A DNA stretch of 64,000 nt from a phage, in sequence record PZ495249.1. One strand, given 5' to 3'. Under the pieces are notes generated by a model. The model did not search any database, was not told where the DNA came from, and worked only from the letters and a program-made list of their open reading frames with translations. The first letter of the stretch is position 1, and each line of letters begins with the position of its first letter. Made by a program: the position numbers and the translations under genes. Shown here one piece after another: positions 5,450 through 39,679 of this stretch.

Positions 5450-5929
5450 TTACTGAATGGTCAGCGCAGAAATTGAGTTCAGCGCGTTAACGCCAACACC
5501 AATTGTTGAGCGAAGCAGAGTCGCATCTTGCAGACCGATTACCCACTGGTTTTCCTGAATAGTGTCACCGATGGTATCGTCTGGTTGACTTTGAATCCAA
5601 CCAATGGTAGTAATGTAGTAACCGCGAGGGTCTTCCAGGTATACGCTGAAAGCTACTGCGCGAGTAGAATACATTTGCTGTGCATAGGCTGAAAGAACTT
5701 CATTAGCCGGAGATGTACGTTGCAAAGACATAGTTAGCGTACCAAGACGGTTACGGCTAAGCGCTAATGAAACATCACCATCAGTACCAGCATATGGGTT
5801 GATGATATCGTTGGTTTTAGATACTACGATCTTAGTATCTGAGGCAAAGCCCCACGGTTCCCAACCACCCAGAGAAAGAATTACCTGAGAAGGGTCGTAG
5901 GCCATCATGCCTGTAAGCATTTTATCCAA
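5450..5929 (-). CDS. putative tail tube protein, 159 aa
   Basis: About 160 aa ORF directly downstream of the sheath-like gene; size and synteny typical of myovirus tube proteins. Confidence 0.5.
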   Translation of the reverse strand: MDKMLTGMMAYDPSQVILSLGGWEPWGFASDTKIVVSKTNDIINPYAGTDGDVSLALSRNRLGTLTMSLQRTSPANEVLSAYAQQMYSTRAVAFSVYLEDPRGYYITTIGWIQSQPDDTIGDTIQENQWVIGLQDATLLRSTIGVGVNALNSISALTIQ

Positions 5930-5979
5930 AGTGGATCTCCTTTACTTGTGTATAAGCGGGGCTTTCACCCCGCCCTCGA

Positions 5980-7386
5980 TTATGAGGATACTGTAGTGCT
6001 GTTAGAGTTCTGTACGTTGGCAGTACGGTTCGTTAGAACGTTCACCTGCACTTTAACGTAGTGGAAGAATCCAGCATATACATACTCAATCACCATACCG
6101 TCTACCAGGCGCTGGTTGATTTGCGCATCGGTCATGTCGGCACGAGATGGGATGTAAACCGTTGGTTTCAGACTCACAAGCAGTCCAGTTTCTTCTGAGG
6201 TAACTACTTCGTTAGAAATAGAACCGTTACGAATACCCACTTGGATTGGGTTTGCCATTACCGCTTGACGAATCAGAGCGATACCAGCAGATGTTGCACG
6301 AACACCGCTTCCAAGCATTGATTGCTGCTTGAACAGAGTGAATAGAGATTCTTCTGTACGAGCTTTGAACCACAGTGAGTGAACAACGTAGTCAACGAAG
6401 AACCCATTAACCATGAAGCCATCACGATAGAACAGTACGCCGTGTTCTTTACGGTAGATGTTACCATTCTGTTGAACAATATAGTTCTCGGAAGTCTGAT
6501 CCAGTTTTTCAATCTCAATACCAACCAGAGTCTTACCGTGAAGGGTAGTCGTACCAGGTTGAGCAGAGCAGATTGAACCTACAACCGCAGCTTCTGGGAA
6601 TACAGTGTCAGCTTTCGTCATCCACAGGGCAAAACAAGTGTTCACATAACCCATGTCGCCAAGGCGTTCAAGGATGTTATCTGTGGCCTTAGTTTTGATG
6701 CCAGGTTCAGAGCTTGAGAAGAAGTACACTTTATCGTGTTCTTCAACATACCCTGCTACGTCAATGATATCCTGATCTACGTGAGAATCAGAAACTACCC
6801 AGAAGTAACTGTTATCTTCGTTAGAGATTGCTGTCAGATCTTCGAGAATAGAGTTCTCATAAGTTGTTACGCTTGTGAAACCTTGGCTTGATACGGAAGC
6901 AAATTTACCTGCTTTCGGTGCGAAGGTCATCTTAGCTCCATCGTTTGCCACGGTGAAGAAAGCGTTATAAGTTGTGTCTGCGTTGATCATTTCGGTTAAA
7001 CCTACTACGATCTCTTGCGCAGTTGCAGTGTCGTCAGAAACGAACTTGAAGTCCTTGCTCTTAGTACCGTTCTTGATAGTTACAATGTAGGTGTAGCTAT
7101 CTGTTACAATCGGTGTTAGAGTGAACTGGTCAACGTCACGTTTACCAACGATTACTTGTTGTGGTGCGAACAGTCCATCAAATAGCAGTTTTGCCATTTT
7201 ATAAGCTGGATCGCTCGTACTGAAACCTGCCGCCAGAAGTGCATCTGACGAAGTGAAGTAGTCAACTAAATTACCTGTTACAGAATGCCCTGTAAGAATT
7301 AGCGGAATGTCGAACTGAACTTCACTAATTGCAGTAGCACCGTAGGTAAGAGTAACGGAAACTACCTTTTCGCGAAAAGTTGCCAT
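5980..7386 (-). CDS. putative contractile tail sheath protein, 468 aa
   Basis: Large ORF upstream of the tube gene; size and position as in sheath-tube pairs. Confidence 0.55.
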   Translation of the reverse strand: MATFREKVVSVTLTYGATAISEVQFDIPLILTGHSVTGNLVDYFTSSDALLAAGFSTSDPAYKMAKLLFDGLFAPQQVIVGKRDVDQFTLTPIVTDSYTYIVTIKNGTKSKDFKFVSDDTATAQEIVVGLTEMINADTTYNAFFTVANDGAKMTFAPKAGKFASVSSQGFTSVTTYENSILEDLTAISNEDNSYFWVVSDSHVDQDIIDVAGYVEEHDKVYFFSSSEPGIKTKATDNILERLGDMGYVNTCFALWMTKADTVFPEAAVVGSICSAQPGTTTLHGKTLVGIEIEKLDQTSENYIVQQNGNIYRKEHGVLFYRDGFMVNGFFVDYVVHSLWFKARTEESLFTLFKQQSMLGSGVRATSAGIALIRQAVMANPIQVGIRNGSISNEVVTSEETGLLVSLKPTVYIPSRADMTDAQINQRLVDGMVIEYVYAGFFHYVKVQVNVLTNRTANVQNSNSTTVSS

Positions 7387-18449: not shown

Positions 18450-18524
18450 TGGTTGTAGCAGATGGAATCGAACCATCATCAATCGGTTATCAGCCGAACG
18501 TATTAGCCGTTATACTATGCCACA
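18450..18524 (-). tRNA. tRNA-Ile (anticodon GAU)
   Basis: Encoded CCA, 7-bp acceptor, T-arm GATGG-AATCGAA-CCATC, anticodon loop reads CUGAUAA. Confidence 0.55.
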
Positions 18525-18530
18525 ATTGTT

Positions 18531-18613
18531 TGGCATCCAGGTGAGGAATCTAACCCCTTGAAACTGGTTTTGGAGGCCAGCAACGGGAACACCCATTTTT
18601 AATCTACCCAGAT
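18531..18613 (-). tRNA. degenerate tRNA-like element or pseudo-tRNA
   Basis: Preceded by the ATTGTTTGG boundary motif; acceptor stem possible with two G.U pairs; T-loop degenerate (AATCTAA); no clean anticodon arm. Confidence 0.2.
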
Positions 18614-18619
18614 ATTGTT

Positions 18620-18695
18620 TGGAGGCGGGAGCCGGAATCGAACCGACCTGCGACAAGCATATGAAACTTGTGAGTTCCCAGAACTCTATCCCGCA
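18620..18695 (-). tRNA. tRNA-Met (anticodon CAU)
   Basis: CCA encoded; T-arm GCCGG-AATCGAA-CCGAC; anticodon loop UUCAUAU; position 1-72 appears mismatched. Confidence 0.5.
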
Positions 18696-18699
18696 CTTT

Positions 18700-18775
18700 T
18701 GGTTGATAGTAAGAGAATCAAACTCTTCTCACAACGCCGTATGAAAGCGTCCGAAACATCAGCTTCACACTATCA
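18700..18775 (-). tRNA. tRNA with CAU anticodon (Met, fMet or Ile-lysidine)
   Basis: Perfect acceptor (TGATAGT/ACTATCA), T-arm AAGAG-AATCAAA-CTCTT, anticodon loop UUCAUAC. Confidence 0.5.
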
Positions 18776-18776
18776 A

Positions 18777-19040
18777 TTAAACACGATGGATTATTTTAAC
18801 TGTCTCACCCTTATCATTCATAAGGTAGGCACTTTCATTCCTATGAATAAAGTCCGTAGAGTTGCCACTAATGACACTTGCAATAACACCATCCAGCTTA
18901 TCATAACCTTCAAAATGATATTGGATGTGTATATTTCCATCAAGTTCTATATAATGTTCTTCTTCATCTACCTCGTAAGGTACTGAGTCATAAATTTTTG
19001 TCCCTTTGGGGAACTTGCGAACTATTTTCAATGTATACAT
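18777..19040 (-). CDS. hypothetical protein, 87 aa, inside the tRNA array
   Basis: ORF with good SD (GAAGGAAATACT-ATG); no recognisable motif. Confidence 0.4.
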   Translation of the reverse strand: MYTLKIVRKFPKGTKIYDSVPYEVDEEEHYIELDGNIHIQYHFEGYDKLDGVIASVISGNSTDFIHRNESAYLMNDKGETVKIIHRV

Positions 19041-19124
19041 AGTATTTCCTTCGTAGTGTTTATATTAGTAATATGCCGTCCCAAGCCGAACGGCGATTAG
19101 TGTTTTAGCTTGGCATTGATAATA

Positions 19125-19199
19125 TGGTACTTCCTGGAGGAATCGAACCACCGACGCTCACCTTGTAAGGATGACGTTCTACCATTGAACTAAGGAAGT
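19125..19199 (-). tRNA. tRNA-Val (anticodon UAC)
   Basis: CCA encoded; perfect acceptor ACTTCCT/AGGAAGT; T-loop AATCGAA; anticodon loop CUUACAA. Confidence 0.55.
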
Positions 19200-19272
19200 A
19201 TGGCGGGGATTTTCCGCACTGTCTATCGCGATATGGACTCGGACAGTGTTCTCGGCTAAATACCCCATTGTT

Positions 19273-19359
19273 TGGTACATCAGGTCAGACTCGAACTGAC
19301 ACGCCCTCACGAGCACTGGAACCTAAATCCAGGGCGTCTACCAATTTCGCCACTGATGC
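19273..19359 (-). tRNA. tRNA-Leu (anticodon UAG), type II
   Basis: 87 nt with long variable arm; T-arm GTCAG-ACTCGAA-CTGAC; anticodon stem CTGGA/TCCAG; loop UUUAGGU. Confidence 0.55.
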
Positions 19360-19367
19360 ATTTAATT

Positions 19368-19444
19368 TGGTGGAGAAGTGGAGAATCGAACTCCATACTC
19401 GAAGGTGCAAACCTCGTGTTTTAACCGAATATTACTACATCCCC
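19368..19444 (-). tRNA. tRNA-Ala (anticodon UGC)
   Basis: CCA encoded; T-arm TGGAG-AATCGAA-CTCCA; anticodon loop UUUGCAC. Confidence 0.45.
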
Positions 19445-19506
19445 AATTTGTATACACTACACAGAAGATAGGTCTGATTGCCTCGGCAGTTGCCGTAGTG
19501 TTTATC

Positions 19507-29809: not shown

Positions 29810-29961
29810 AACTACGTATCACTGATATCCGAGCGTTTGACAACTATCACATAGCCTTGTCAATTCTTGGCGCACATAATGTAGGTGATGTGTTGGAGTA
29901 TAACGAACATATGCCTATCTTCGATATCTTGATCGAAAAAGGTTGGGTGCAAAAGGTATGA
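29806..29961 (+). CDS. hypothetical protein, 51 aa
   Basis: SD GGGAGGAAGAAGAA-ATG. Confidence 0.35.
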   Translation: MKLRITDIRAFDNYHIALSILGAHNVGDVLEYNEHMPIFDILIEKGWVQKV

Positions 29962-30302
29962 GAATCTGGCTTGATGATTTACGTGATCCAAGAGATTACG
30001 GATACCCTGATGCCATCTGGGTTAAAAACTCCATTGATTTCAAGCTGCAACTTATTGATTGTCTGCTTATGGAAGATGATGGTGATAGCCTGGTAGCGAT
30101 CCACTTTGACAACGATATTGGAGAAAAGACCGAAGGTTATCACCTCTTCTTAAAAGTGGAGGAGATCATTCATGCTGGAAAATTCAAGGGCTTGAAAGAA
30201 ATCTTTGTCCATACGTCGAATTCAGGGGCGGCTCAGAAATTTATGCTTGCAAAAGACGGGTTAGCTCGTTATGATGTGAACATAATTCGTAAATACTATT
30301 GA
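29958..30302 (+). CDS. hypothetical protein, 114 aa
   Basis: ATG overlapping the upstream stop (ATGA). Confidence 0.4.
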   Translation: MRIWLDDLRDPRDYGYPDAIWVKNSIDFKLQLIDCLLMEDDGDSLVAIHFDNDIGEKTEGYHLFLKVEEIIHAGKFKGLKEIFVHTSNSGAAQKFMLAKDGLARYDVNIIRKYY

Positions 30303-30313
30303 GGAGAGATAAC

Positions 30314-30481
30314 ATGTGGAGCACACCATCAAGAGGCCAACTGCCTAACCAAAACGAAGTTGTTGTGGCTGTCAGTCCAGAGGGTAAGGAATTGGAGATG
30401 TACCGAATTGGCAATCTGTGGTTCCCTGTCGGTGACACATGTTATGTCTACTGGACACCTGTAATGTGGAGGAATAAGTAA
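30314..30481 (+). CDS. hypothetical protein, 55 aa
   Basis: SD GAGGAGAGATAAC-ATG. Confidence 0.35.
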   Translation: MWSTPSRGQLPNQNEVVVAVSPEGKELEMYRIGNLWFPVGDTCYVYWTPVMWRNK

Positions 30482-31044
30482 TGTTTGTGACGAGTGATCG
30501 CCACTTCTGGCATGATAAAGTGCTGGATTTTCAGGCGCATACCCGCCCATTCTCTGATTTAGAAGAGATGCATGAGGCATATATTAAAGAGTGGAACGCC
30601 TGTGCAACCAAACCTGGGGTGAAAATGTTCCACTTGGGAGATTTCAGTTTTGGTCTTCAAGACCAGACAGAAGAAATCTGCAAGCGTTTGCAGGGTGATA
30701 TCACCTTCATCGTTGGCAACCATGACCGCAGCTATACCCGTTCCGTAATGGAAAAGTATGGGCGTGTCGTCTGGTATGATGAAGTGAAATATCAGAAACA
30801 CTTCTTTGTATTGAGCCACTACCCTATGCTCACCTGGAACAAATCCCACAAGGGGAGTATCATGTTACATGGTCACGAGCATGGCAACTTGGTGCATCTC
30901 GAAGAGGAGCGTGGTAAAACTATGGATGTGGGCGTAGACGTTCACGGTCGCTTCTTACATTTCGATGAAATCATTGAGATTATGAAAGACCGTCCTATGC
31001 GCATGGATCATCGTAAATTTAGAGGGGAGGATATTATCCGATGA
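30481..31044 (+). CDS. calcineurin-like metallophosphoesterase, 187 aa
   Basis: Motifs SDRHFWH, GDFSFG, GNHD, HGHEHG. Confidence 0.55.
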   Translation: MFVTSDRHFWHDKVLDFQAHTRPFSDLEEMHEAYIKEWNACATKPGVKMFHLGDFSFGLQDQTEEICKRLQGDITFIVGNHDRSYTRSVMEKYGRVVWYDEVKYQKHFFVLSHYPMLTWNKSHKGSIMLHGHEHGNLVHLEEERGKTMDVGVDVHGRFLHFDEIIEIMKDRPMRMDHRKFRGEDIIR

Positions 31045-31993: not shown

Positions 31994-32217
31994 TGAGTAC
32001 AGCGATTTATGTGAAAGGTAACGATTTAAATCAAGAAATGCTATTCTCTTTCGGAGATGGTACAGACATTGATGTAATCTACGACGATGTGGTAGCGGGG
32101 CTGTTAAATCAAGGCTTCATCACTGTTACAGACTTCATGGTAACTTCTTCTGAGTATCTCGATGTAGATCTATTAGAGATGATGGAAGCTGTGCAGAAAG
32201 AAGTGTACAACTGGTAA
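31993..32217 (+). CDS. hypothetical protein, 74 aa
   Basis: ATG overlapping the upstream stop (TGATG). Confidence 0.4.
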   Translation: MSTAIYVKGNDLNQEMLFSFGDGTDIDVIYDDVVAGLLNQGFITVTDFMVTSSEYLDVDLLEMMEAVQKEVYNW

Positions 32218-32226
32218 GGAGAAAGA

Positions 32227-33345
32227 ATGCAGCAAACAAATCCTACCCTATACGGGAAAGACTCGAAAGGTAATATCAAAGAGTGGTCTGTTTACACTGA
32301 CGGCGCAACTGTGACGGTAGCTCACGGTCGTCTTGGTGGTAAGATCACCACTAAGTCCTATGAAGCGGAAGCTAAGAACGTTGGACGTTCCAATGAAACA
32401 ACTCCGGCTGAACAAGCCGAATCAGAAGCCTTAGCCAAATGGACTAAGCAACTCAAACGTGGGTACTACCACACCATTGAAGAAGCGAAAGAGCATGAAC
32501 CTTTCACGCCCATGAAATGCCAGGACTATAAAGACTTCTCACACAAAGTGAAGTTCCCTGGTTATGCACAATACAAGTTGAATGGCTTACGCTCCATGAT
32601 CAACGATGATGGTGAATGCCTGTCCAAAGCTGGTGAAGTTTATAAGCTCCCTAACCACTGGTCGCCTATCCCTCAGTTTATTCAAGAAGATTTCGGATAT
32701 CCGTTAGATGGTGAAGTGTTTGCTGGTCTTGGTGTTATGAGCCTACAGGTCATCAATGGTGCATGGAAGAAGTACAAACCAGGTATCACTGAGCAATTAA
32801 GTTACTACGTCTACGACATTCCAGTGCCAGATTTGCCTTTCAAGAAACGTGTTGAATTCCTGAAAGACTTGGCAGAGATGATTGTGGATGCTGGTCTGGA
32901 AAACCTGATCCATGTTGTCCATTCCGAATACATCGAAAACCAAGAGCAGTTAGACGCTTTCTATGAGAAAGCCCTGGCAGATGAGGCCGAAGGTATTGTA
33001 TGGCGTAACGAAGACGGTACTTATGAGTTTGGTAAACGTTCCTATGATGTGATCAAACGTAAACCTCGTGCAACTATGGAAGTCAAGGTAACAGGTATGG
33101 TTATTGATAAAAATGGTGATGGGGTATTGACAGGGATTACAAAAGATGGTAAGATTGTCGAATTCCTGATGAGGAAAGATTCACATCCTACCATCAACTA
33201 CCGCAAAGCAGAAAACGCCGTCAAACTTATCGATCACTTTGTTGAAATTGAATACGAAGAGTTATCTGACGCTGGCGTACCTACAAAACCAGTTGGCATT
33301 CGTCTGAGACAAATGATCGAAGGTACATGGGAACCTGCCGAATAA
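32227..33345 (+). CDS. ATP-dependent DNA ligase, 372 aa
   Basis: Nucleotidyltransferase motifs: I KLNGLR (Asn in place of the usual Asp), III LDGEVF, IV EGIVWR, V DVIKRK. Confidence 0.6.
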   Translation: MQQTNPTLYGKDSKGNIKEWSVYTDGATVTVAHGRLGGKITTKSYEAEAKNVGRSNETTPAEQAESEALAKWTKQLKRGYYHTIEEAKEHEPFTPMKCQDYKDFSHKVKFPGYAQYKLNGLRSMINDDGECLSKAGEVYKLPNHWSPIPQFIQEDFGYPLDGEVFAGLGVMSLQVINGAWKKYKPGITEQLSYYVYDIPVPDLPFKKRVEFLKDLAEMIVDAGLENLIHVVHSEYIENQEQLDAFYEKALADEAEGIVWRNEDGTYEFGKRSYDVIKRKPRATMEVKVTGMVIDKNGDGVLTGITKDGKIVEFLMRKDSHPTINYRKAENAVKLIDHFVEIEYEELSDAGVPTKPVGIRLRQMIEGTWEPAE

Positions 33346-35949: not shown

Positions 35950-36981
35950 TTGGAAAAGCGCAGTATCCACGCCGTACACAAGGCTTCCGGTAACGTAAAA
36001 GAGTTTGCGAATAGAACAGAGTTTTGGGGAAATAAGAAGCACGAAATTGAGGGCTGGCTCGGAGCACTAAATGCATCACGAGAACAAGAAGGTAAACGCC
36101 CATTCACCAAAGAAGATTTTGATATCTTAGACGTGCAAGAAGTACCTGAGAAAATAGCTTTCACATTCCAAGCTGCAAAGACAAAAATCGCTGGTATCAT
36201 GGAACATCTCAAACTGAGAAAATACTGTGGTGTTATCGGCGTAGGCAAGACCTTCCGGCATTCCTTCGCGATGCCAACAGAATACAAATCTGAACGATCT
36301 GAAATAAAACCTCTTCAACTATCTGACACGAAAGATTACCTTGTGGAACAACACAATGGTAACGTTGTTACGGGACTTGAAGCAGATGACGCTCTGGAAA
36401 TCTTCGGTTACTCCGGCTGGAAAGCCTATAAAGAAACTGGAAAGTTCTCACACATCGTAGTGTCAATTGATAAAGATAGTCTCTCGACTCCAAGTTTGCT
36501 CTTCAACTTCTACAAAGAAGACGGCGTTTTCAAACAACCTTACATCATTCTTATCGACGATTCGATTGGTGAGATTTGGGTTGTCGAAAAGGGCAAGAAG
36601 AAAGAGATTAAGGGTTGGGGTAGTATGTGGTTGGCTTATCAGATGCTTATGGGCGACAAGACAGACAGTATTCGTCCTTACCAGGACTTCGGTATCAAGT
36701 TCGGAGATATGGCTTGCTTCAATCTGATCTCGGAGTGTAAGACACAAGCTGAATTATTCAACACAGTTAAAGCCCAATATCACAAGTGGTTCCCCGATGG
36801 TGTAAGTTTTACATCGTGGGATGGAACAGATACTTGGATGGAAACTGATGCATGGATAGAAACAATCTTCCAACTGGTCTACATGAAGCGTTGGGAAAAT
36901 GATGAAACAACATTTGAGAGTATGTTAAAAGCATACGAAGCAGAACAGGACGAAGCACTGTCCATTCAGGAGGAAAATTGA
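35950..36981 (+). CDS. FEN-family 5'-3' exonuclease / flap endonuclease (start uncertain)
   Basis: GLEADDALE acidic motif and H3TH-like LMGDKTDSIRPYQDFGIKFGDMA; first in-frame start is TTG at 35950 with no SD; frame is open upstream to 35845. Confidence 0.5.
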   Translation: MEKRSIHAVHKASGNVKEFANRTEFWGNKKHEIEGWLGALNASREQEGKRPFTKEDFDILDVQEVPEKIAFTFQAAKTKIAGIMEHLKLRKYCGVIGVGKTFRHSFAMPTEYKSERSEIKPLQLSDTKDYLVEQHNGNVVTGLEADDALEIFGYSGWKAYKETGKFSHIVVSIDKDSLSTPSLLFNFYKEDGVFKQPYIILIDDSIGEIWVVEKGKKKEIKGWGSMWLAYQMLMGDKTDSIRPYQDFGIKFGDMACFNLISECKTQAELFNTVKAQYHKWFPDGVSFTSWDGTDTWMETDAWIETIFQLVYMKRWENDETTFESMLKAYEAEQDEALSIQEEN

Positions 36982-37943
36982 GTAAATTAACAAACGAGCA
37001 GAAAGTTGCAATCACGTCAATGAAAGCTGCTGGTTATTCTTCACGTCACATCGCCGCTACCGTACTTGGTAGCGCAACTCGTAAAAGTACAGTCAACGAC
37101 TTCCTTGCACGAGAGAATTTTGACGAAGTGTTCGAAGTTGAAGATGCAGTTAAAAAGCCTGTAATAAAGATTATTGACGTTGAGACAGCGCCAGAAATCG
37201 TTTACAGCTTCCGCAGATTCAAGGCTTTCATTTCGCCAGATCAGGTGATCAAACGTGGCTACCTGCTTTCCTACTCCATCTCTGATCTGTACACCGGAGA
37301 AGTAGAAGGTAAGAACCTTAGCGATTATCCGCTGTTCGACATTGATCATACAGATGATTGGGAATTATGTCAAGACCTGTGGCGTATTCTGGACGAAGCC
37401 GATGTTGTTGTAGCACATAACGGTTATAAGTTTGACCGAGCTTACATCAACCAACGTTTCGCATTCCACGGTATGCAACCACCATCTACCTACGTAGTTG
37501 TGGACACATTGAAAGCTGCCAAGAAACAATTTGCATTACCATCCAACTCCCTGAAAGAGATGGGCGCATACTTCGAAACCGAAAGTGAAAAACTGGATAA
37601 CGAAGGATTCCCACTCTGGAAAGCATGTTGCGAAGGTGATCGAGATGCGTTCGGACGTATGCAGACTTACAACGATGGTGATGTTGTGTCACTGCGTGAT
37701 CTGTATATCAAAATCCTTGCGTGGATTCCTCAGCACCCTAACCTGGCAGCATACTACGAAGACGAGCTGCGTCGTTGCCCTCGTTGTGGTAAAGACCATC
37801 TCGTACCAGTGGCTGGTAAGTTCTATAACACCGCTGTCAGTACGTTCCAAGTGTTACGTTGTACTTCATGTCAGAGCCTGTCTCGTGGACGTGTTAACCT
37901 GCGCAGCAAAGAGAAACGTGCCTCAACCGTTATCGGTATTTAA
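36978..37943 (+). CDS. DnaQ-like 3'-5' exonuclease with N-terminal HTH and C-terminal zinc ribbon, 321 aa
   Basis: DEDDh-type motifs IDVETAPE, HNGYKFDRAY, YNDGDVVSLRDL; CPRCG...CTSCQ ribbon. Confidence 0.55.
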   Translation: MSKLTNEQKVAITSMKAAGYSSRHIAATVLGSATRKSTVNDFLARENFDEVFEVEDAVKKPVIKIIDVETAPEIVYSFRRFKAFISPDQVIKRGYLLSYSISDLYTGEVEGKNLSDYPLFDIDHTDDWELCQDLWRILDEADVVVAHNGYKFDRAYINQRFAFHGMQPPSTYVVVDTLKAAKKQFALPSNSLKEMGAYFETESEKLDNEGFPLWKACCEGDRDAFGRMQTYNDGDVVSLRDLYIKILAWIPQHPNLAAYYEDELRRCPRCGKDHLVPVAGKFYNTAVSTFQVLRCTSCQSLSRGRVNLRSKEKRASTVIGI

Positions 37944-38933: not shown

Positions 38934-39120
38934 GCAATATGGAGAAGGTGAGGTTTATAAGATCTACAATCGCAAAGGCGACAAGCTCTTACAAACTATC
39001 ACCATGCCGGAGAGTATGTGCAAAGCAGGTCTGGATAGAATGTTGTTCTTCAAGTACAACATTGCCCCAGGCGATTATGTAGCTAAGAAGGTGAGTAACA
39101 TTGGCGAACAAGGAACCTAA
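38917..39120 (+). CDS. hypothetical protein, 67 aa
   Basis: Short ORF overlapping its neighbours. Confidence 0.3.
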   Translation: MSSTSKQYGEGEVYKIYNRKGDKLLQTITMPESMCKAGLDRMLFFKYNIAPGDYVAKKVSNIGEQGT

Positions 39121-39679
39121 GATTGTATGGGGTGAGGGAACCCCCTGGAGAACCCAAGCAGAATTCTACACGTATTTGCGAGGTTGTCTAAGGAGAGCAT
39201 GGATTCGACACCCCAACAAGATTAAACGTATTAACGCACTACGCTACCAAGTTGATCGACTTGACAAAGACGGTAACGTAATGCGAGATAAGAAAACAGG
39301 TAAACCAAAGAAAATCTGGAACTGCAAGTGTGAACTCTGTGGACACACAGGCGGAATGAAAGATTTCCAAGTAGACCACATCCACGCCGCAGGTGCGCTA
39401 ACCTGCTATGAAGACCTTCCAGGTTTTGCTCTAAGACTCCTCTACGTAAACGAAGAAGACCTACGAGTAGTTTGCAAGAAATGCAACTCAATCCTCGCAT
39501 ATGCTGATAAGCACAACTTATCGTTCGTAGAAGCGTCGGCGGAGAAAGAAGCCATTGAAATCTGTCGTACTAAGAAGGACAAACAGTGGCTTGAGAAACG
39601 TGGAGTGAAGCCTGAAAGTACAATAATTAAGCGAAGAAAACAGATAGTGAAAATACTTCTTGATCTTGCGCAACAATAA
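39101..39679 (+). CDS. HNH endonuclease, 192 aa
   Basis: CELCGHTGGMKDFQVDHIHAAG ... CKKCN (Cys pairs flanking catalytic His). Confidence 0.5.
   Translation: MANKEPKIVWGEGTPWRTQAEFYTYLRGCLRRAWIRHPNKIKRINALRYQVDRLDKDGNVMRDKKTGKPKKIWNCKCELCGHTGGMKDFQVDHIHAAGALTCYEDLPGFALRLLYVNEEDLRVVCKKCNSILAYADKHNLSFVEASAEKEAIEICRTKKDKQWLEKRGVKPESTIIKRRKQIVKILLDLAQQ

Follow-up and report, generated by a model that had tools for sequence, protein, structure and literature searches.

Asparagine in motif I of a bacteriophage ATP-dependent DNA ligase is a lineage-typical form that accompanies loss of an OB-domain arginine

Background

Does an asparagine in place of the motif I aspartate of a DNA ligase point to a damaged active site, to altered nucleotide chemistry, or to neither? 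The question is raised by a gene at positions 32227-33345 of a 64,000-nucleotide stretch of phage DNA (sequence record PZ495249.1; the whole stretch is referred to below as the window), the product of which reads K-L-N-G-L-R where the ligase consensus is KxDGxR. The first-pass annotation of this DNA had left two readings side by side, a tolerated variant or altered nucleotide handling. The comparisons reported here establish that the open reading frame (ORF) codes for an ordinary phage ATP-dependent DNA ligase, and a strongly conserved one. In its group of ligases the active site normally reads Lys-Leu-Asn-Gly, a form typical of the lineage and neither a defect nor a sign of new chemistry.

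The ligase and its motifs

The gene lies on the plus strand, starts with ATG and encodes 372 residues followed by a stop codon. A Shine-Dalgarno sequence, AAGGAG (32216-32221, plus strand), can be read in the sequence 5 nucleotides 5' of the start codon, and the upstream ORF ends at 32217. Pfam family PF01068 covers residues 95-279 with all 204 positions of its profile and scores 52.3 bits where the cutoff is 26.2, which bears out the identification of a DNA ligase with a KLNGLR motif I at residues 117-122; phrog_114, annotated as ATP-dependent DNA ligase, matches residues 7-364 (E = 4.9e-75). Comparison with the orthologue of Klebsiella phage KP2025 yields a ratio of nonsynonymous to synonymous substitution rates (dN/dS) of 0.046 at a dS of 1.24, indicating strong purifying selection on the gene.

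Three domains follow one another. The N-terminal DNA-binding domain (residues 1-95; 32227-32511) comprises four beta-strands and a long helix bearing the conserved pattern K50-N-x-G-x-x-N56-x-T-x-x-x-x-Q63-A64, and is followed by the nucleotidyltransferase, or adenylation, domain defined by PF01068 (residues 96-281; 32512-33069). [quoted passage not shown] The match of Pfam PF14743 to the OB region is weak and below its cutoff (E = 0.18); the domain is present together with its motif VI arginine according to the profile alignment, which runs through R361, and the structural superposition agrees.

Motif I (K117-L-N119-G-L-R122; 32575-32592) aligns with K151-R-N153-G-V-R of the ASFV ligase and K27-I-D29-G-I-R32 of the Chlorella virus ligase. 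The catalytic lysine is therefore in place, as the first-pass annotation had it: K117, aligned on Chlorella virus K27 and ASFV K151, is the predicted AMP-accepting residue, and Q115, two residues before it, is predicted to contact adenine N6. In an alignment of 37 relatives, on which the statements of conservation in this section rest, K117, L118, G120 and R122 are invariant. The textbook aspartate at the third position is not present in the phage protein, its place being taken by N119 (codon AAT, 32581-32583). The possibility that a canonical motif lay around another lysine was also considered; a regular expression for K-x-[DNEH]-G run over the whole protein matches at K117 only, and there is no alternative motif I with the usual aspartate.

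The remaining nucleotidyltransferase motifs III, IV and V are canonical, in agreement with the earlier description (LDGE at 160-163, EGIVWRN at 255-261 and VIKRK at 275-279). Motif III, L160-D-G-E163-V-F-A-G (32704-32727), has invariant D161 and E163 aligned with D65 and E67 of PBCV-1; motif IV, E255-G256-I-V-W-R-N (32989-33009), has invariant E255 and G256 and aligns with Chlorella virus EGVMIRK; and motif V, D274-V-I-K277-R-K279-P-R (33046-33069), has invariant K277 and K279 and aligns with Chlorella virus LLKMK. Motif IIIa, Y193-Y-V-Y196-D197-I (32803-32820), placed by alignment with the ASFV and Chlorella virus ligases, is intact too, with Y196 and D197 invariant or nearly so, as is the motif VI arginine.

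Two further sites bear on the role of N119. A stretch at the nick site, S172-L173-Q174-V-I-N-G (32740-32760), was placed by HMMER alignment to 6imj; L173 and Q174 are invariant, and profile alignment makes L173 the equivalent of the nick-site residues Leu211 of the ASFV ligase and Phe635 of human LIG1. In the OB domain, the nick-site loop and motif VI together read P352-T353-K354-P-V-G-I-R-L-R361-Q (33280-33312, profile alignment). Here T353-K354 occupy the site of an Arg-Phe pair, which is R871-F872 in LIG1 and lies within PRFP in the Chlorella virus ligase, and which corresponds to L402-Q403 in the ASFV ligase. Of these residues, K354 does not vary and R361 is conserved to 90% or more.

Asparagine is the usual motif I residue among close relatives

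Among the 120 closest homologues (45-94% identity), motif I reads KxNGxR in 114 and KxDGxR in 6. A sequencing error at N119 (AAT for GAT) is ruled out, the asparagine being kept in these 114 homologues and in the KP2025 orthologue. An exhaustive profile search added 148 further representatives of clusters at 50% identity, of which 51 have Asn, 90 have Asp, 2 have Glu and 5 are interrupted or incomplete at the motif. Family members with Asp include those of Ounavirinae (Sf17), Pakpunavirus (vB_PA45_GUMS), Vequintavirus (ime) and Vibrio phage F100. On a rough neighbour-joining tree of 264 sequences, the Asp/Asn state changes about 32 times, as against about 80 times with shuffled labels; the state is thus heritable, yet it has switched many times.

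The aspartate of KxDGxR is therefore a consensus feature and no strict requirement, since the crystallised and active ASFV ligase has N153 and 51 of the 143 family representatives have Asn. Asparagine in motif I is also an already documented natural variant. Thus, the first of the two readings offered earlier, that of a tolerated variant, holds: the residue is carried by the majority of the clade, recurs in the wider family, is found in the active ASFV enzyme and stands in a gene with a dN/dS of 0.046.

In several relatives, motif I is interrupted directly after KLDG (...KLDG|CF...) by an intein that contains a LAGLIDADG homing endonuclease. These proteins (P0124, P0143, P0162, P0178, P0182 and P0188), about 706-785 residues long, match Pfam Intein_splicing and LAGLIDADG_2. 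The insertion point is equivalent to window position ~32586/32587, after G120; the intein-bearing relatives themselves come from outside the window.

Asparagine goes with loss of the OB-loop arginine

In ligases of known structure, the motif I aspartate pairs with an arginine of the OB domain. LIG1 D570 forms a salt bridge with R871, the residue before F872, in the closed DNA complex (PMC6344480), and LigIV D275 does so with R577, the residue before F578 (PMC6035275). All 28 family sequences that have Arg at the site equivalent to LIG1 R871 have Asp in motif I and none has Asn (Fisher p = 9e-7). Of all well-populated alignment columns, the one holding the OB arginine shares the most mutual information with the Asp/Asn state, followed by two columns of the preceding OB strand and then by the Phe/Lys column.

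The pattern extends to the tetrad formed by the third position of motif I and the positions of L173, T353 and K354, counted over 140 representatives. A few combinations recur, among them DLQF (27 representatives), the fully canonical DFRF (23) and NLTK (18), the last being the type of the window ligase and of 110 of its 120 close relatives; NFIF occurs in 6 and NLLQ, the exact ASFV type, in 2. The association of Asp with Arg is not merely the mark of one Asp-only clade, because in 12 of 28 cases an Arg-type sequence has an Asn-bearing protein as its nearest relative without Arg, and because the tetrads counted within the Phe-type subgroup are DFRF (23), NFIF (6) and DFIF (1). Of 113 sequences whose OB loop lacks Arg, 62 have Asp, a count that weighs against a strict coupling; loss of the arginine thus permits Asn but does not dictate it.

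An ASFV-type architecture

A confident AlphaFold2 model built with the 37 relatives (mean predicted local distance difference test score, pLDDT, 92.3; predicted template modelling score, pTM, 0.79) was compared with the Protein Data Bank (PDB) using Foldseek. The closed, DNA-bound ASFV ligase (6IML, 6IMN, 6IMK) ranks at the top with a query-normalised score (TMq) of 0.77-0.78 over the full length, and the remaining ligases reach 0.61 or less. The family profile likewise finds the ASFV ligase first in the PDB (E = 5.9e-22, residues 38-361), and a separate profile built on just the first 95 residues matches the N-terminal domain of that enzyme (E = 4.5e-7). On the strength of these three matches, the phage ligase is assigned the ASFV-type layout, in which a mixed alpha/beta N-terminal DNA-binding domain precedes the nucleotidyltransferase and OB domains. 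Its N-terminal domain is homologous to that of the ASFV ligase and has a WGR-like fold.

The ASFV ligase (AsfvLIG, NP419L; PDB 6IMJ, 6IMK, 6IML and 6IMN) is thus the closest relative of solved structure over the whole length, although the identity is only about 20%. Its N-terminal domain extends about 35 residues further at the N-terminus, and its OB loop has Leu-Gln where the phage protein has Thr-Lys. The ASFV enzyme serves base excision repair in a eukaryotic virus, whereas the phage gene sits in a replication module; the low fidelity of the ASFV enzyme is a measured property. The authors of the ASFV structures named Asn153, together with Leu211, Leu402 and Gln403, as four "unique" nick-site residues, and reported that the enzyme is active and that multi-site mutants including N153D are far less active than the wild type (PMC6344480). 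The phage ligase shares the first two of these residues (N119, L173) and differs at the OB pair (T353, K354).

A proposal of 2009 nested the ASFV ligase among bacterial and phage ligases (PMC2806865), while the 2019 structure paper and a 2020 review considered its N-terminal domain unique and represented ASFV by a single node of a sequence network (PMC6344480, PMC7470946). In the present comparisons, phages commonly have the ASFV-type N-terminal domain, Asn153 and Leu211: the window ligase has matches in 1,045 phage records, and its family profile reaches 3,290 library proteins at E <= 1e-30. At E <= 0.001 the number of library proteins rises to 18,034.

The ligase of PBCV-1 and human LIG1 and LIG4 have in common with the phage protein a catalytic core of nucleotidyltransferase and OB domains as well as all six motifs (I, III, IIIa, IV, V, VI), and presumably use the same three-step mechanism. 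Unlike the phage ligase, they combine the motif I aspartate with an OB Arg-Phe pair (PRFP in PBCV-1, D570 with R871/F872 in LIG1, D275 with R577/F578 in LigIV). None of them has the WGR-like N-terminal domain; PBCV-1 relies on a latch, and LIG1 and LIG4 on a helical DNA-binding domain. The fungal Trl1-LIG and archaeal Rnl3 (MthRnl) RNA ligases resemble the phage protein in their natural Asn at the third position of motif I.

Role of the asparagine and alternative readings

Published work offers several precedents for what this residue does. Besides forming its salt bridge, the motif I Asp of canonical ligases holds a water that is a ligand of the catalytic metal; an example is D169 of Pmar-Lig, to which W1, a water on the catalytic Mn, is bound (PMC6698739). 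In the fungal tRNA ligase Trl1, whose native motif I is KxNG, Asn150 reaches the catalytic Mn2+ through a water molecule (PMC6379707). MthRnl also has a native KxNG motif; its N99A mutant retains 22% activity with step 3 mainly affected, and the asparagine is non-essential (PMC4797309). For the Chlorella virus ligase, the D29A data point to a defect in the steps after adenylation (as summarised in PMC6035275), and a literature search for the D29N variant of that enzyme returned no match.

The gene very probably encodes a functional ATP-dependent DNA ligase of ASFV-type layout that uses standard chemistry and in which Asn is tolerated along with the loss of the OB arginine. The enzyme would seal nicks as a large enterobacterial myovirus (~150 kb) replicates, recombines and repairs its DNA, its beta-rich N-terminal DNA-binding, nucleotidyltransferase and OB domains jointly encircling the nicked duplex. 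In step 1, K117 would attack ATP to form ligase-AMP, with the nucleotide held by Q115, E163, R122, K277, K279 and the motif VI residue R361; the AMP would then be moved to the 5'-phosphate at the nick (step 2), and attack by the 3'-OH would seal the strand (step 3). In the lineage of the window ligase, the Arg-Phe pair would have become T353-K354 and the neighbouring Phe would have become L173. With the cationic partner gone, the carboxylate would no longer be needed for domain closure, and a carboxamide may be neutral or even favoured. The N119 carboxamide should still be able to hydrogen-bond a metal-bound water, as Asn150 does in the fungal tRNA ligase.

This account draws directly on the domain identity, the integrity of the motifs, the conservation of the asparagine, its coupling to arginine loss and the purifying selection on the gene; the conservation and the ASFV precedent together suggest catalytic activity. 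Several points weigh against it. The precedent for activity comes from an enzyme with only about 20% identity, by way of which the activity of the phage clade is deduced, and the ASFV asparagine is partnered by Leu-Gln and not by Thr-Lys, so that the exact OB partner differs. The contacts that N119 may make with water, metal, T353 and K354 are taken from the structures of other ligases. In addition, the covariation statistics carry no phylogenetic correction, the Fisher test takes the sequences as independent, and the neighbour-joining tree is noisy at these divergences.

The likeness to the ASFV enzyme admits a bolder extension, in which Asn...Thr-Lys, with Leu for Phe, replaces the Asp...Arg-Phe clamp and so defines a widespread class of relaxed-fidelity or lesion-tolerant ligases, in phages and ASFV, built on a WGR-like, break-sensing N-terminal domain; such a class is a tentative and rather unlikely idea. 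It is likewise quite unlikely that the set N119/L173/T353/K354 makes the window enzyme itself an ASFV-like ligase of relaxed specificity, which would accept nicks with mismatched, damaged or other non-standard 3' ends and might suit a fast-replicating phage or unusual DNA. The ASFV study ties N153, L211, L402 and Q403 to catalytic efficiency and describes the rigid Asp-Arg salt bridge and the Phe pair of LIG1 as aiding fidelity (PMC6344480); the phage protein shares the Asn and Leu of its closest solved-structure relative in the adenylation domain, without Arg-Phe in the OB loop. However, the residue swaps in the ASFV ligase cut activity and left mismatch discrimination unchanged, and the authors assigned these residues a role in complex assembly and not in discrimination (PMC6344480). 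The OB residues also differ (T-K versus L-Q) at an identity of only about 20%, and the window gives no indication of modified DNA.

A change in nucleotide cofactor use or adenylation, be it another NTP, NAD+ or a slow or regulated self-adenylation, is highly improbable. Motif I does belong to the nucleotide-binding pocket, and MthRnl N99A has an approximately 10-fold lower apparent affinity for ATP (PMC4797309). The third position of motif I, however, makes no contact with the base. The residue that reads adenine N6 in the ASFV ligase, Q149 (PMC6344480), corresponds to Q115, a glutamine kept in 90% or more of the family; conservation extends to all the residues that bind ribose and phosphate (E163, R122, K277, K279 and R361), the Ia domain of NAD+-dependent ligases is not present, and the Chlorella virus D29A data point to steps later than adenylation (PMC6035275). 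The suggestion of altered nucleotide handling is thus not upheld, the position having no part in nucleotide reading and the adenine-contacting Q115 being conserved.

Equally, the window protein can hardly be an RNA ligase or RNA-repair enzyme. KxNG is native in the fungal Trl1-LIG and in MthRnl of the Rnl3 type, and the related phage KP2025 encodes an RNA ligase nearby, so that RNA-repair functions exist in the group; but an RNA ligase would be expected to have a family-specific C-terminal domain without the motif VI OB domain, and the protein is not built in this way. It is scarcely credible, finally, that the window protein is a pseudoenzyme, ligase-like but inactive, which would bind nicks and leave them open: LigIV and the Chlorella virus ligase do lose nick sealing when Ala replaces the motif I Asp (PMC6035275), and the KP2025 orthologue is annotated as "adenylation DNA ligase-like protein", but all other catalytic residues are invariant, dN/dS is 0.046, the ASFV ligase is active with the same Asn, the inteins of the relatives, elements that target essential active sites, sit in motif I, and no second DNA ligase was noticed among the window neighbours examined or is annotated in a 17 kb stretch of KP2025.

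Genomic setting

The window resembles the ~150 kb myoviruses of Klebsiella and Escherichia of the phAPEC8, or Stephanstirmvirinae, type. Its nucleotide identity to phages phi1_175008, FKP3 and KP2025 is about 83% over matching segments, and it represents a genome distinct from these phAPEC8-like relatives. The ligases of KP2025 (XCO36255.1; 90% amino acid identity) and Escherichia phage ESCO13 (~74%) are orthologues of the window ligase within PHROG 114; they have the same length, the same KLNGLR motif and a common gene neighbourhood, with no functional difference from the window protein.

The neighbours of the ligase gene encode a phosphoesterase, a MazG-like pyrophosphohydrolase, an RdgC-like protein, an exonuclease, a DNA polymerase exonuclease subunit, an HNH endonuclease, ThyX and a ribonucleotide reductase, and the gene thus lies in a replication and nucleotide-metabolism module. 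In KP2025, genes for an RNA ligase and an "ATP-binding protein" lie about 1-2 kb upstream of the DNA ligase gene (KP2025 positions 5646-7173). A tblastn search detected no counterpart of either anywhere in the window, which has a phrog_1479 protein and the phosphoesterase at the corresponding place (29943-31044). The presence of the RNA ligase pair in KP2025 only, with other genes in the window, points to a local gene-cassette difference between the related phages.

Within the same module, the DNA polymerase exonuclease subunit (phrog_403; 321 residues) has a separate ORF at 36978-37943, the KP2025 equivalent of which is annotated as "DNA polymerase B". An HNH endonuclease gene (phrog_1985; 39101-39679) lies about 1.2 kb further downstream. 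Together, these ORFs suggest a split or fragmented polymerase gene arrangement.

Elsewhere in the window, 23 tRNA genes form an array on the minus strand (18450-23838), including three tRNA-Met(CAT) genes and, at 22066-22140, a gene with a CUA (amber-reading) anticodon that ARAGORN labels tRNA-Pyl. GC skew switches sign near 26-28 kb, from negative upstream to positive downstream. The switch coincides with the change from the minus-strand tRNA array to the plus-strand replication module, that is, with a boundary of divergent transcription.

Implications

KxNGxR is a normal and selected form of motif I in a large clade of phage ligases. Thus, annotators should not call it a defect, nor should they name such a protein "ligase-like". 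That Asn is found only where the arginine partner of the OB domain is absent gives comparative support to the view that the motif I aspartate matters partly through an interdomain salt bridge.

Bacteriophages commonly have the features of the ASFV ligase that have been termed unique, namely the N-terminal domain, Asn153 and Leu211, a fact relevant to where the ASFV enzyme came from. Phage homologues are many and easy to express, and could serve as models of that ligase or as candidate reagents with different nick-site properties. If the doubtful notion of a relaxed-fidelity class were true, the "unique", drug-targetable features of the ASFV ligase would be an inherited phage design and not an invention of ASFV.
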